DNA of 32,000 bases from Nitrosopumilus maritimus SCM1 (GCF_000018465.1 NC_010085.1:1613260-1645259); one strand, 5' to 3'. Positions 20,147-32,000 are shown, counted from the stretch's first letter. Numbers and translations are program-made. Notes: a model not told the origin generated them from the letters alone.

Positions 20147-20704
20147 CTAATCTTCCAAACGAACTTTTGTGGCTGCGTTTTTAGCAATTAATGCCTGTGC
20201 ATTTTCATATGGAATGGTTGCAATATCTTCAATTTTAAACGGACCATACTTCTCCAGATCAGCACCTACAATTTCATCTACTTCTTGCAAAAATCTTACT
20301 GCAATTTTCTTTGTTTTGTGATTTTGAGACAAGGATTCAAGGAATTTTGATTTTCCGTTAATTGTAGCTGAGAGAATCATTTCTTTTCGGTCGTTTTCTT
20401 CTTCTTGTGAATCAAGAATGAATTTTTCTTCATCTAAAAGAAAACCGATCTCAAGGTCTTTTGATTTTGAAATTTTTTCCAATCTGACATTTATGAGTAG
20501 AGAGGTCAATTCGGTGGCCATTTCTATCATAGTATCTTTGATTTTACTTTCAACACCATCAAATTCTTGTTTTTTTAGATTTCCTATAAAGTCAGATAGA
20601 TTTCTGTAAAAGTTAGGATCGATTTCTAGTAGGGATTCATCTTCGGTTTCTCGTAAAACAGTATGATGTAGATAGTTGATATCGATTTGATTTGTCTCGG
20701 ACAT
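20147..20704 (-). CDS. hypothetical protein, possibly a GINS (Gins51/Sld5-like) replication factor subunit
   Basis: 185 aa. The N-terminal helical pattern L..E....LLEIDPNFY..L..FI..L and a C-terminal small beta-domain resemble archaeal GINS. The assignment is by recollection only. Confidence 0.45.
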   Translation of the reverse strand: MSETNQIDINYLHHTVLRETEDESLLEIDPNFYRNLSDFIGNLKKQEFDGVESKIKDTMIEMATELTSLLINVRLEKISKSKDLEIGFLLDEEKFILDSQEEENDRKEMILSATINGKSKFLESLSQNHKTKKIAVRFLQEVDEIVGADLEKYGPFKIEDIATIPYENAQALIAKNAATKVRLED

Positions 20705-25688: not shown

Positions 25689-28600
25689 TCAGGCATAATC
25701 AGTAAGAAGTGACTGGTCACCTGGGCTTTTTCCAAATACTAGTTCAATTTCATCAGAAAGTGCATGAATACGTCCTCTTTGATATTCACTAACATCATAC
25801 TTGTCAACAAGTCTTTTTGCAAGTTTTAGATATTTTTCTACAGAACCACGAGTTATTGTTGGAATTAGTTTATGCCCACAAACACAAGTTTGGATTAATG
25901 GCATACGACGATAGGATTTGCCACATCCAGTACACCTAAAGTTTTGTCTTGCATATGCTCTCAGATTTCCCATAATGTCTGGTACTAGATGAGTTGAGAT
26001 AACATCTGAAACAATTTCTGAAGTATTTACAGCATCAATCAGTTCAGCATTTCTAACTTGCATATCGAATTTGTCAAGCATTGAGCCAAGAGTGGAATAT
26101 GCACTACGTGATTTTGAAGTTGTAAGCGATGAGGTAGTATGTGTAAAATGATAATCATAAAACTGTCTTTCTGTCTCAAGTCTAGATTTGATGATTTCAA
26201 CAGATGAAATGTCCGGTGCTTTGGCTTGTTGAAGTGTTGATTCAAAAAATTCTAAAGGCAATGATTTTGTTACCTCAAGATTATGGGCTTGTGGCTGGGA
26301 TTCATGTGGTAAAACAAGAGGTTGAACAAGTAGTGGTGCATCCATCAATCCACCAATCGCATCTGAAAGGAACTGTCTTGAGAAATTCAAAAGACTATCC
26401 ATCAACAGCATTATAGAATCAGCATCACCGTCTGCGTCTCTTCTTTTTGCAGAATGCCAATTGGGAGTTGCAAAACATACATGGGTTTCAGAATATCCAA
26501 TGATTCTACCTACAATTCCAACTGATGTATGAGGAGCAAGACCAATTATCAGATGTCCAATCAATTCCTCAGAGTTGGTTACATTGTAAAATGAGGTTTT
26601 TCCATAGAATTTTTCTAAAAGAGTATCAATGTATTTGCAAATCGAAACAAGATACTTGCCACTTTCATATGGAATTATCACATCTTGCATTCGAAGTTCA
26701 ACTATCTGCTCTGGATCTTCAAGTGGAATTCCATCAACATCATGAGAGTATCCCAATTCTTTGAGTTTCTCAACAGAGGTTCCAATCCAAGAGGGTTTGA
26801 ATTGAGTTAGAGGAGAATTTGTTGCATCAAATCTAACAGTTCCATCCTTAAAGACTGTCAGTCCAAAGTTTTGACGAACCAATCCTTTTTCCAGAGGTTC
26901 AGCAATCTTATCTTGACTGATTAATTCTTTGACTCCTTTGAAGGGTTCTTGGGCACGTAGGCGAATTTTTTCTTGAGCTTCTAGAAGTTTTGATTTTAGG
27001 GGAAATTCCTTATGAGAATAGGCTAGAGCGTTTCGTTTGCATTTTTCACAAAAAGATTCTTCGAGTGAATCTCTGCAATGTGGGCACCTATAGGTGACAG
27101 TGGTCTTTGTGCCACATTTTGAACATTTAATCCCAATTGACGGGATATTACATTGATTACAATGCCTATTGTAAATACTGGTGAAAAAGTGCTCATTTCT
27201 AGATGCCTTTAGAAGATCTCGTGTAGGTCCTCCTTTGTCACTAATTGGGAATAATACGTGTGTTGGTGGTTTCATCTGTCTAGGGGCAGATTTCTCAGGT
27301 CTTCCAATTCGTACTCCAATAGATGTAGAGAATTTGTTTCTAATTTTGATTCCAGAAGATTTTGAGATAATTTGAGGAACAGAAGAATCATCAATTGTTG
27401 GTTCTTCTCTAAACAACAAATTAAAGAAAATTTTTGCTTCAGTATTTTCAAGAATAATACTGTCATTTTTGACGATATGTGGAACTCCTAATTTTTCAAG
27501 AATTTTCTTTGTTTGTGGAGAGTACTCTACTGATGTTTCATTGATTGTTTTGGGATTCAAAAGTAGTCCAAGTTCTTCAGCAGATAGCTTATCCCAATAA
27601 TACAGGTAATGAGGATGAAGAGTCATATCAAAATCAATCGAGATTTTTAATGCCTCATCTATTGTAGGAATTCTATTGAGAAATCGAGTCAGATAATGGT
27701 CTTCAGGCTCGTATTTCGCAATTTTTTGTTTTAATTCCTCAATCCAATATTCTTCTACATATCCTGATGGAACAAGTTGTGCGTTATTTTCTAGGAAATC
27801 ACCAAAAGATATCAGAATATCTCCAAGGTGAAGTATTTTTTCAATGTCATTTTTGATTTCTATTCCATGTTTTACATCTCTAATTTTTACAACACTGCCA
27901 TCTTTCAAACGAACTACAGGAGTTTCAATCGAATCAACAAATGCTACTGTTGAGCCTTTTCCTGGAATGTCAATCTTAATTTGAGTTCCAACTGCAATTG
28001 TGTGATCAAGTATTTCTGCAACTACAGGATGAAGTCCAACTGCGGCAAAACCAGTATTGCATGCTCGTCCATATCTTAGTCGGAATCCTCCTAGTCTGTT
28101 AGGCATAGAAAGGACTGATCTGCCTGTAATTACCTCATGCATTCTTTTGGTAGCTGCATCCTCCTGTTTTTCACCAGTCTGAACAGCACCCTTTAGGTCA
28201 TTAAGCCACTCCCAACCATCAAGATTGTACATTTCAATTCTTTTGAGTAGTTTCTTGGATCTTCCAATAAGACCATCATTTAGGACACGTAAGGCACCTC
28301 CCCTTACTCTATCAGTTTTGATTCGCGCCATAGATTTGTGATTTACAACCTCATAAGGGTCAGTATCAACACCGTCTAGCTCTACTGGAAGATTGGAAAT
28401 CACATGTTCAATATCTTCATCTAGGATATGGAATTGAAAACTACTAGCCTCTCTTTCATAGATTCTTAACTCCTCAACAAATCGACCTGTTTCATCATCA
28501 AATGAATTGGCCTGGAATTTTGATAGTCCTGCTGTCTTTCTGACATGATCTGCAATCAACATAGTTACGGCAGATTCTGTTCCTCCAGCAGAACGCATAG

Positions 28601-29066
28601 GACCTGCAATGGAAACTGAAAGATATTCAGAACCATCCTTGTTTTTTTTAATCTTTACCTCACTAATTCCTTGCAACGGAGCAATTGTGACTCCTTCTGT
28701 AACAATTGCCAATCCAACACGTACTGCCAGATCAAGTTTTTCTTCCAAAGTAGAATCAGGAAGTGAGTATTTTCCCTGTGCAATCTCTTTTGATAGAATT
28801 AATGCAGAGAGTTCTTTTCCGTTAGTTTTTAGAAGTTCTCGAAGTGGTTCAGCGATATCAATTTCGTGCATTTTTGCTACACGATCAGCCAGATCAAATG
28901 CGATTTTCGGCTCTATTATGCCGGAAGAGTCAACTAGGCTTGATTTTGCAGATGCAGCAGTCTCAAAAATGTTGTATGTTTCTGTAGATAGACTAGAGTA
29001 GTAATCAGAATAGTAATCAGGCATCTTAATGCCACTAATACGAGAAATTGCGTCGTTTTCAGACAT
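25689..29066 (-). CDS. polC: DNA polymerase II (family D) large subunit DP2
   Basis: The 1125-aa ORF has the catalytic acidic cluster HSAKRRDADGDAD and several CxxC zinc modules (CNQCN..CSKCG, CPHCR..CEKC, CTGCG..CVCGH). No intein-sized insertion is present. Confidence 0.95.
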   Translation of the reverse strand: MSENDAISRISGIKMPDYYSDYYSSLSTETYNIFETAASAKSSLVDSSGIIEPKIAFDLADRVAKMHEIDIAEPLRELLKTNGKELSALILSKEIAQGKYSLPDSTLEEKLDLAVRVGLAIVTEGVTIAPLQGISEVKIKKNKDGSEYLSVSIAGPMRSAGGTESAVTMLIADHVRKTAGLSKFQANSFDDETGRFVEELRIYEREASSFQFHILDEDIEHVISNLPVELDGVDTDPYEVVNHKSMARIKTDRVRGGALRVLNDGLIGRSKKLLKRIEMYNLDGWEWLNDLKGAVQTGEKQEDAATKRMHEVITGRSVLSMPNRLGGFRLRYGRACNTGFAAVGLHPVVAEILDHTIAVGTQIKIDIPGKGSTVAFVDSIETPVVRLKDGSVVKIRDVKHGIEIKNDIEKILHLGDILISFGDFLENNAQLVPSGYVEEYWIEELKQKIAKYEPEDHYLTRFLNRIPTIDEALKISIDFDMTLHPHYLYYWDKLSAEELGLLLNPKTINETSVEYSPQTKKILEKLGVPHIVKNDSIILENTEAKIFFNLLFREEPTIDDSSVPQIISKSSGIKIRNKFSTSIGVRIGRPEKSAPRQMKPPTHVLFPISDKGGPTRDLLKASRNEHFFTSIYNRHCNQCNIPSIGIKCSKCGTKTTVTYRCPHCRDSLEESFCEKCKRNALAYSHKEFPLKSKLLEAQEKIRLRAQEPFKGVKELISQDKIAEPLEKGLVRQNFGLTVFKDGTVRFDATNSPLTQFKPSWIGTSVEKLKELGYSHDVDGIPLEDPEQIVELRMQDVIIPYESGKYLVSICKYIDTLLEKFYGKTSFYNVTNSEELIGHLIIGLAPHTSVGIVGRIIGYSETHVCFATPNWHSAKRRDADGDADSIMLLMDSLLNFSRQFLSDAIGGLMDAPLLVQPLVLPHESQPQAHNLEVTKSLPLEFFESTLQQAKAPDISSVEIIKSRLETERQFYDYHFTHTTSSLTTSKSRSAYSTLGSMLDKFDMQVRNAELIDAVNTSEIVSDVISTHLVPDIMGNLRAYARQNFRCTGCGKSYRRMPLIQTCVCGHKLIPTITRGSVEKYLKLAKRLVDKYDVSEYQRGRIHALSDEIELVFGKSPGDQSLLTDYA

Positions 29067-30987: not shown

Positions 30988-31034
30988 AAGATATATTTCG
31001 AGTTTTTCCAAAGTCATTTTACATAATTTTACGC

Positions 31035-31113
31035 AAAAAATACTATTTTTGATTATTAATTATAATTAACATATTTTATTAAATTATATATATTATTAAT
31101 TTATAGTCATAAT
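31035..31113. other. ~94% A+T tract (promoter of the AbrB-type gene and/or an easily melted region)
   Basis: There are only 5 G/C in 79 nt. The tract contains the 14-bp palindrome TTAATTATAATTAA (31056-31069) and one TTAACAT copy (31066). Confidence 0.6.
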
Positions 31114-31275
31114 ATGTCCATTCAAGAAAATGAAGTTTTGGTAAAAATCACATCTGCTGGGACAATTTCTATCCCAAAACAGTTTAGAAAGTATATGGAC
31201 ATCCAAAAAGGTGAATATGTAAAATTAATTCTTGGAAAAGACCGTTTGATTGTTAGAAAAATCACTATATCTTGA
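31114..31275 (+). CDS. AbrB/SpoVT-family (swapped-hairpin) DNA-binding protein, 53 aa
   Basis: This gene is not in the ORF track because it is under 60 aa. My translation is MSIQENEVLVKITSAGTISIPKQFRKYMDIQKGEYVKLILGKDRLIVRKITIS, which matches the SpoVT-AbrB pattern (V.....G.I.IPK..R..L....GD.V......D..I.RK). The stop is TGA at 31273-31275. Confidence 0.7.
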   Translation: MSIQENEVLVKITSAGTISIPKQFRKYMDIQKGEYVKLILGKDRLIVRKITIS

Positions 31276-31280
31276 TTGGT

Positions 31281-31667
31281 TTAGTGTTGTTTTTGGCTGA
31301 TTTTTATGGTTTGATATGTCCATTCTCTACCATTTCTAGTCCTATCTACCCTACCTTTTGAGGAAAATCTTGAGAGATATGTGGAAATTACACTAAGTTT
31401 GATAGGTTCGTTGAATTCATCCTCATATTTTTCAAGAATGTTAGTTGATGTGAATTTGCCCATAGGGAAGAACTTGTCAATAATATGCCAAATTTTAGAG
31501 CCTACAGAATCTATGTTAGTTGTGGTTTCCTCTTCTTCAATATTCATCAAGTCCATCATCTCAAATATTTTCAAGACTTTGTCCCTGGTTACATTACCTT
31601 CAAGTTTGATATCATAACGTGCACCGTCAGAGTCTTCCATGTCTATACGAATACGTTTTTTGGCCAT
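31281..31667 (-). CDS. hypothetical protein with a C-terminal winged-helix-like domain
   Basis: 128-aa ORF with an ATG start. The C-terminus FTSTNILEKYEDEFNEPIKLSVISTYLSRFSSKGRVDRTRNGREWTYQ has an HTH plus wing pattern. Confidence 0.55.
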   Translation of the reverse strand: MAKKRIRIDMEDSDGARYDIKLEGNVTRDKVLKIFEMMDLMNIEEEETTTNIDSVGSKIWHIIDKFFPMGKFTSTNILEKYEDEFNEPIKLSVISTYLSRFSSKGRVDRTRNGREWTYQTIKISQKQH

Positions 31668-31825
31668 GTTAGGATCTATTCGATCTGATGTTAACAGTTC
31701 AAATGATCCGCGAAAATTTGTTAACTAAATGGTTTGTTAACATTGACTGTGTAAGCCACGCCTAGTTATTTTTTTGTTATTAACAATTAGTCGTGTATAA
31801 GCCCCCTAAATTAAGAAATATTCAT

Positions 31826-31848
31826 GCCTGGAGTGGAAATAAAGGGGT
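31826..31848 (+). promoter_or_regulatory. origin recognition box (ORB)-like repeat 1
   Basis: GCCTGGAGTGGAAATAAAGGGGT has GGAAA-N4-GGGGT spacing, as in archaeal Orc1/Cdc6 binding sites. Confidence 0.55.
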
Positions 31849-31887
31849 TAGATTTGAGATATTCACAATGTTAACGTCAATTTTAAC

Positions 31888-31910
31888 GCCTGGAGTGGAA
31901 ATTAGGGGGT
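31888..31910 (+). promoter_or_regulatory. origin recognition box (ORB)-like repeat 2
   Basis: GCCTGGAGTGGAAATTAGGGGGT is 21/23 identical to repeat 1 and lies 62 bp downstream in the same orientation. Confidence 0.55.
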
Positions 31911-31961
31911 CAAAATAGGGTTTTTGGGAGTTTTCTTAACATCAAATTAACATGGTTGTTA

Positions 31962-31975
31962 ATTTCCAGTGGAAC
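31962..31975 (-). promoter_or_regulatory. inverted mini-ORB-like dyad
   Basis: The plus strand reads ATTTCCAGTGGAAC and the minus strand GTTCCACTGGAAAT. This compares with the TTCCAGTGGAAA core of Sulfolobus/Pyrococcus ORBs. Confidence 0.5.
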
Positions 31976-31987
31976 CCACACACCAAT

Positions 31988-31998
31988 ATTTCCACTCT
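31988..31998 (-). promoter_or_regulatory. inverted partial ORB-like core at the window edge
   Basis: The plus strand reads ATTTCCACTCT and the minus strand AGAGTGGAAAT. This is the same GAGTGGAAAT core as repeats 1 and 2, and the window ends 2 nt later. Confidence 0.4.
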
Positions 31999-32000
31999 TC

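Follow-up and report, generated by a model that had tools for sequence, protein, structure and literature searches.

The 478-bp intergenic region that extends from position 31668 to extrapolated position 32145 of the DNA analysed here is, very probably, oriC, the single chromosomal origin of replication of Nitrosopumilus maritimus. The DNA is one stretch of 32,000 nucleotides from strain SCM1 (the window, with positions counted from its first letter), and an earlier note, made from that sequence alone, had read a set of repeats at the right-hand edge as a probable replication origin. The reading is supported by an orc1/cdc6 gene adjacent to the region, by predicted origin recognition boxes (ORBs) that are both non-random and specific to the locus, and by an A/T-rich tract that lies past the box we call ORB-B. 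The elements and their statistics, their conservation and exclusivity to this locus, the adjacent orc1 and the location of the easily melted DNA are all established in the present analysis. Initiation at the locus in vivo is taken from the literature, where it is reported; the link between the reported peak and this intergenic region comes by way of secondary citations.

Read from left to right, the region begins at the start of a leftward gene, p128, which is followed by four TGTTAACA boxes, ORB-A1, a TGTTAAC box and ORB-A2; after ORB-A2 come three TTAACA boxes, the inverted ORB-B, an A/T tract of ~110 bp, ORB-B' and, finally, the ATG of orc1. The left 333 bp of the region lie inside the window. 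Positions beyond 32000 are extrapolated from a 20.5-kb contig (L001/L091), the DNA of which is identical to positions 31001-32000 of the window, the only overlap tested. The features of the region, together with the replication genes around it, are as follows.

20147-20704: Gins51, about 11 kb from the origin
25689-29066: PolD large subunit (DP2), about 3 kb from the origin
31281-31667, minus strand: p128, a gene of 128 aa, divergent from orc1 and the left boundary of the origin region
31689-31696, 31719-31725, 31735-31742 and (split) 31775-31785: four palindromic boxes of the TGTTAACA type by the p128 start, conserved in the footprint
31826-31848, plus strand: ORB-A1, a predicted origin recognition box of the direct type, GCCTGGAGTGGAAATAAAGGGGT, recognised by weight matrix and consensus match
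31869-31875: TGTTAAC box between ORB-A1 and ORB-A2, ~43 bp past the start of ORB-A1 and conserved in position
31888-31910, plus strand: ORB-A2, the second predicted box of the direct type, GCCTGGAGTGGAAATTAGGGGGT, 62 bp from ORB-A1
31936-31941, 31947-31952 and 31957-31962: three TTAACA/TGTTAA half-site boxes between ORB-A2 and ORB-B, at fixed spacing in 32 relatives
31964-31974: TTCCAGTGGAA dyad, the mini-ORB of the earlier note, an exact match to the consensus ORB dyad
31972-31998, minus strand: ORB-B, an inverted predicted ORB of a second class, AGAGTGGAAATATTGGTGTGTGGGTTC on the minus strand, 45.1 bits
Extrapolated 32001-32110: A/T-rich tract of ~110 bp, 80-88% A+T, the candidate duplex unwinding element
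Extrapolated 32121-32147, plus strand, past the window edge: ORB-B', a degenerate predicted ORB of the second class, TGATAGGAAACAAAGGTGTGTGAGTAT, 20.2 bits
Extrapolated 32146-33348, plus strand: orc1/cdc6 initiator gene, 400 aa, TIGR02928 at 368 bits (cut-off 181)
Extrapolated 33325-34770, convergent with orc1: PolD small subunit (DP1), directly downstream

The most conspicuous elements inside the window are the two 23-bp direct repeats. On re-reading, their coordinates, their identity at 21 of 23 positions and their distance of 62 bp, start to start, are all as the earlier note had given them; similarity around the two reaches 47 nt at 74%. Because 62 bp is approximately six helical turns, ORB-A1 and ORB-A2 would face the same side of the double helix. 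When up to three mismatches are allowed, the degenerate 23-mer matches the 32 kb at just two places, ORB-A1 and ORB-A2, compared to an expectation of 0.00 from shuffled sequence (n = 100). The sequence GAGTGGAAAT has three perfect copies in the 32-kb window, all of them in the origin region, the third being inverted and located at 31988-31997.

The repeats also resemble origin recognition boxes described elsewhere among the archaea. Aligned with the archaeal ORB consensus CTTCCAGTGGAAACGAAAGGGGT, ORB-A1 shows 18 identities in 23 positions and a single gap of 1 nt, and the spacing between its core and its G-string is that of the published Methanomassiliicoccales ORBs (table in PMC4153887). Judged by its sequence, ORB-A1 counts as an ORB of the kind by which an archaeal Orc1/Cdc6-dependent origin is recognised. 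In the earlier note an Aeropyrum ORB, CTCCACAGGAAACGGAGGGGT, had been aligned without gaps at 14 of 21 positions; the arithmetic is correct, and CTCCACAGGAAACGGAGGGGT is present in the literature as a 22-bp duplex, TCTCCACAGGAAACGGAGGGGT (PMC5376975).

For comparison we used 80 orthologous loci from Nitrosopumilaceae genomes, at an Orc1 identity of 58-96% (alignment of Orc1 homologues). Throughout these loci the GTGGAAA core occurs 2.99 times per kb in the 600 bp upstream of orc1 and 0.19 times per kb elsewhere. The family possesses two classes of ORB element: the direct ORB-A, with the consensus cAtGCCTGGAGTGGAAATaAaGGGGT (built from 92 instances), and the inverted ORB-B, with the consensus AGAGTGGAAAtAttGGTGTGTGGGT (from 50 instances), which has a GGTGTGTGGGT tail. 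Occurrences of both were counted within two mismatches in the 75 loci with enough upstream DNA. ORB-A is present in 74 of the 75 and in exactly two copies in 63; 145 of its 146 matches are on the orc1 strand, and the spacing of 69 successive pairs is 61 bp (n = 14), 62 bp (n = 51) or 63 bp (n = 1) in 66 cases. ORB-B is present in 57 of the 75 loci, with 55 of its 68 matches on the minus strand, opposite to orc1. Outside the upstream region of orc1 there are zero copies of ORB-A and zero copies of ORB-B in ~617 kb from the 80 genomes.

Scored against the weight matrix of the family, ORB-A1 attains 45.6 of a maximum possible 48.1 bits, and ORB-A2 attains 43.9 bits. When the weight matrices were run over 41.6 kb of N. 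maritimus DNA, scores of at least 10 bits were confined to the oriC intergenic region, where they mark four distinct ORB-type elements; the one further match at this level is a cross-match of the ORB-B matrix to ORB-A1 itself (17.2 bits). Conservation extends past the boxes: in a MAFFT footprint of 32 close relatives, the entire 478-bp intergenic region is conserved at levels like those of coding sequence. The layout of the origin is kept in GC-rich distant relatives, in which the short A/T tract is still more conspicuous. Some variation in architecture is seen in outlying lineages, with the ORB-A pair located 570-690 bp from orc1 in five loci (L045, L079 and L082-L084). In a further locus (L088, 3500-4000) there is a ~130-bp tract of almost pure A/T, together with two extra plus-strand elements of the ORB-B type.

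To the right of the direct repeats the elements change both class and orientation. The inverted repeat that the earlier note described near the window edge is present but is longer than was claimed, its sequence, AGAGTGGAAAT, being the core of the 27-nt second-class ORB that carries the tail GGTGTGTGGGT. The search for further inverted ORBs past the edge, which had been proposed as a check, yields ORB-B' at extrapolated 32121-32147. ORB-B and ORB-B' form an inverted pair around the A/T tract with their GTGGAAA cores facing inward, and ORB-B' overlaps the start codon (ATG) of orc1. In 51 of 79 loci the position equivalent to ORB-B' has a score of 15 bits or more, a comparison in which not one of 352,310 background positions attains 12 bits, and distant relatives have a perfect GAGTGGAAA core at that position. 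The N. maritimus version of ORB-B' is degenerate, and the GGTG conserved in it may be no more than the ribosome-binding site of orc1.

A different conclusion applies to the dyad in front of ORB-B. The sequence ATTTCCAGTGGAAC is indeed found at 31962-31975, and the match of its dyad to that of a mini-ORB stands; conservation, however, does not, for TTCCAGTGGAA is missing from every one of the 80 relatives, even the closest (96% Orc1 identity), and it sits in a variable spacer. Mini-ORBs, as in the origins of Pyrococcus and Methanothermobacter, are dyad-only Orc1 sites that recur, are conserved and lack a G-string, and a single copy with no counterpart in the relatives was not assigned to that class. 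The function of the TTCCAGTGGAA dyad is doubtful: from its sequence and distribution it may be either a lineage-specific site or a coincidence.

The earlier note had described the array as cut by the window end, and this proved to be the case, the extension adding the A/T tract, ORB-B' and orc1. The intergenic region contains no open reading frame of 60 aa or more, as had been noted for the stretch inside the window, and the longest frame found is 41 aa. The A/T tract is the least stable DNA in the intergenic region: in a nearest-neighbour profile, positions 32001-32110 have approximately -40 kcal/mol per 40-mer, compared to a mean of -48.0 (sd 3.1). The tract is at least 90% conserved in the 32 close relatives, and in 61 of 61 loci with ORB-B the least-stable 60-mer begins past that element, at a median distance of 4 bp. 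The region thus has four ORB-type elements and, within the inverted pair of ORB-B and ORB-B', a tract of 80-88% A+T, which is the arrangement of A/T-rich DNA flanked by ORBs.

Another A/T-rich tract, at 31022-31131, lies between an HTH gene and an AbrB-like gene, ~700 bp to the left of the ORBs and outside their cluster; no other 110 bp of the 41.6 kb are as unstable or as rich in A/T, and it exceeds the candidate unwinding tract in both respects. A 53-aa ORF with a SpoVT/AbrB (MazE_antitoxin) domain is found at 31114-31275 on the plus strand; its position is conserved in 67 of 80 loci, and no toxin-like gene was seen beside it.

The initiator gene, for which extension of the contig had been suggested as a check, was found with its start at extrapolated 32146, 146 bp past the window edge. 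Both Orc1 and p128 match N. maritimus proteins at 100% identity. The Pfam matches of Orc1 include AAA, Cdc6_lid and WHD_Cdc6, and its closest solved relatives are 2V1U_A and 2QBY_A (E ~1e-82, full length); 2V1U is A. pernix ORC1 and 2QBY_A is S. solfataricus Orc1-1, both of them initiators solved on ORB DNA. These matches are those expected of an ORB-binding initiator of the Orc1-1 type, to which Orc1 is predicted to belong, with AAA+ plus C-terminal winged-helix domains.

Replication genes (Gins51, DP2 and DP1) are clustered around the origin, and the adjacency of DP1 is kept in 77 of 80 loci. The PolD large subunit and the GINS-like gene lie where the earlier note had placed them, as do the genes for GGGP synthase and a thermosome subunit. 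In one Logan assembly (SRR000223; L003, 2942-6318) the PolD large-subunit gene is split between two gene calls, of 166 and 969 aa, which is probably the result of a sequencing or assembly frameshift rather than of biology. Local GC skew is +0.035 to the left and -0.077 to the right of the origin locus, and the ratio of GGGT to ACCC is 38:20 on the left versus 11:18 on the right, but both measures come from 41.6 kb only, which is too short for them to count either way, and both are confounded by gene orientation.

Interleaved with the ORBs are the TGTTAACA boxes, which the earlier note does not mention. TGTTAAC has six matches in the 32-kb window, and all six fall between 31689 and 31875. Across the 80 loci TGTTAACA occurs 3.06 times per kb upstream of orc1 compared to 0.015 times per kb elsewhere, an enrichment of ~210-fold; GTTAAC is enriched ~49-fold upstream of orc1, and the TGTTAA/TTAACA half-sites have a median of 10 per origin. 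The positions of the boxes relative to the ORBs are conserved, and half-sites persist even in GC-rich relatives. GATC sites are clustered in the oriC of E. coli, and on that model we considered GTTAAC as a site of restriction or methylation. This reading was rejected: the ratio of observed to expected occurrences in the background is 0.79, versus 0.70-0.93 for other palindromes, so there is no specific avoidance, and the conserved unit is the TGTTAA half-site, even where the 6-bp palindrome is incomplete. A search of the literature, covering sources other than the primary origin-mapping study, found no description of the TGTTAACA boxes, which are possibly an undescribed feature of the origin.

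The gene at the left boundary, p128, is divergent from and adjacent to orc1 in 74 of 74 loci. Its product has no Pfam family, the only match being a sub-threshold one to winged-helix repressors of the BlaI/CopY type (Pfam Penicillinase_R). An AlphaFold model of moderate confidence (mean pLDDT 69) shows a C-terminal half made up of three helices plus a wing; a fold search with p128 gave no significant match. One possible, though rather unlikely, explanation of the TGTTAACA/TGTTAA boxes is that they are the sites of a second, lineage-specific protein associated with the origin, for which p128 is a candidate, and which would gate either origin firing or the expression of orc1. Binding of p128 to the TGTTAACA boxes is put forward as a hypothesis and not as a result. 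If true, it would mean that a Nitrosopumilaceae-specific module for origin control exists on top of a canonical ORB origin.

The observations made thus far could, in principle, have causes that have nothing to do with replication. The 23-bp repeat might be a dispersed element that merely happens to be near orc1 (a MITE, a generic transcription-factor site or the end of a mobile element), an objection that the earlier note had itself raised. An exact-pattern scan of metagenome contigs with CTGGAGTGGAAATNNNGGGGT gave at least 120 loci. Among the matches listed 109 had flanking DNA long enough for a test, and 83 of these have an orc1 homologue on the same strand 246-448 bp downstream (median 327 bp). 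The listed matches that lack orc1, 26 in number, and a further 19 matches in viral contigs are what a dispersed element would lead one to expect; however, the 26 occur singly, their contigs have 28-70% GC, not one carries the GCC prefix of the ORB-A family and many are inside long open frames, and the viral matches behave in the same way. Within the Nitrosopumilaceae, the position, number, strand and 62-bp spacing of the repeat are fixed, and no copy exists outside the upstream region of orc1 in the ~617 kb from 80 genomes or elsewhere in the 41.6 kb of N. maritimus. The lack of off-locus copies, together with off-target matches that are unrelated, argues, at this depth of sampling, against a MITE, a generic site or the end of a mobile element, and we see practically no prospect that the repeat is one of these. 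Single ORB-like sequences of the form CTGGAGTGGAAAT-N3-GGGGT, apparently non-coding and with no orc1 on the fragment, are present in the metagenome contigs L093/L106, L100/L114, L145 and L147/L191, and may represent ORBs from other lineages of archaea.

A second rival is a region that serves only to control transcription of the divergent genes orc1 and p128, the ORB-like boxes being operators through which Orc1 regulates itself, the TGTTAACA boxes being operators for a local repressor, and replication beginning elsewhere. The region does lie between two divergently transcribed genes, ORB-B' does sit on the start codon of orc1, and the TGTTAACA palindromes resemble sites for dimeric transcription factors and are crowded at the p128 end. 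Against this, the literature places a single mapped origin at ORB repeats and a cdc gene; moreover, the layout is the full canonical layout of an origin, with the least-stable DNA enclosed by the inverted ORB pair in all 61 loci that have ORB-B, and autoregulation and origin function can coexist. We therefore think it improbable, by a wide margin, that control of transcription is all that the region does. Nor does the conservation seem to reflect a structured RNA, either an orc1 leader or a small RNA, rather than a function of the DNA. All 478 bp are conserved as strongly as coding sequence in the 32 close relatives, as such an RNA could demand, but Rfam offers nothing meaningful (best match 17 bits, E = 0.94), the 145 nt upstream of orc1 fold no better than shuffled sequence (z = +0.45), and the conserved units are repeated DNA boxes, found on both strands and kept through large shifts in GC-content. 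The chance that RNA structure accounts for the conservation is, in our judgement, vanishingly small.

If the region is oriC, as we conclude it very probably is, then a mechanism can be proposed by analogy with the Orc1-1/ORB systems of Sulfolobus, Aeropyrum and Pyrococcus. Orc1/Cdc6 from the adjoining gene would bind each ORB as a monomer, via its winged-helix and AAA+ domains, so that monomers would sit on both of the in-phase ORB-A boxes and on the inverted pair of ORB-B and ORB-B'. Orc1 bound in this manner would recruit the MCM helicase to the bracketed A/T tract; the tract would melt, and replication forks would depart in both directions. Orc1 on ORB-B', over the orc1 start codon, might in addition feed back on synthesis of the initiator: since ORB-B' overlaps that codon, repression of orc1 by its own product is probable as well.

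The origin of N. maritimus was reportedly mapped by Pelve, Martens-Habbena, Stahl and Bernander in 2013 (Mol Microbiol 90:538). According to Borrel et al. 2014 (PMC4153887), the consensus ORB CTTCCAGTGGAAACGAAAGGGGT was given by Pelve et al. 2013 from active origins that include that of N. maritimus. Several reviews describe a single N. maritimus origin, mapped by marker frequency analysis (PMC4010727, PMC5333045, PMC4588119, PMC11005403), and a further paper has the ORB repeats of N. maritimus adjoining the cdc6 gene (PMC5797428). Ori-Finder 2 makes one prediction for the N. maritimus genome, which was scored as a true positive (PMC4164010). The oriC locus appears to be the same object as the origin mapped in 2013 and predicted by Ori-Finder 2, from which it is not known to differ in any respect. 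Given the same organism, the published mapping, the match to the consensus and the Ori-Finder 2 prediction, the finding is a correct rediscovery of an origin that is already known.

What the finding means is, in part, that a truncated archaeal origin was correctly recognised from raw sequence alone, with no tools. The comparison adds an anatomy of the origin at the level of single bases and across the family: two classes of ORB, a fixed spacing of 62 bp, a located unwinding tract and an ORB that overlaps the orc1 start codon. Ammonia oxidisers of the Nitrosopumilus type are abundant, replicate slowly and have defined cell-cycle phases; a conserved palindromic box, together with a small protein that is always adjacent, could reveal how initiation is controlled in these organisms, and constitutes a modest lead.

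Among known systems, the oriC of Pyrococcus abyssi and P. furiosus is alike in being a single origin, with ORBs that flank an A/T tract, directly upstream of orc1/cdc6 and within a cluster of replication genes. It is unlike the region described here in several details: in N. maritimus a spacer of 4 nt separates the GTGGAAA core from the G-string, the ORB-A dyad has CTGGA and not TTCCA as its left half, which means that ORB-A is not palindromic, there is no conserved array of mini-ORBs, and the TGTTAACA boxes are additional. With oriC1 of Sulfolobus solfataricus and oriC1 of Aeropyrum pernix the N. maritimus origin shares an initiator of the same clade, ORBs that combine a GGAAA core with a G-string, and inverted ORBs that bracket the unwinding element. 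It differs from both in that the ORBs bracketing its A/T tract belong to a divergent class, in which GGTGTGTGGGT replaces the GGGGT G-string, and in that its two canonical ORBs are located on one side of the tract and in direct orientation.
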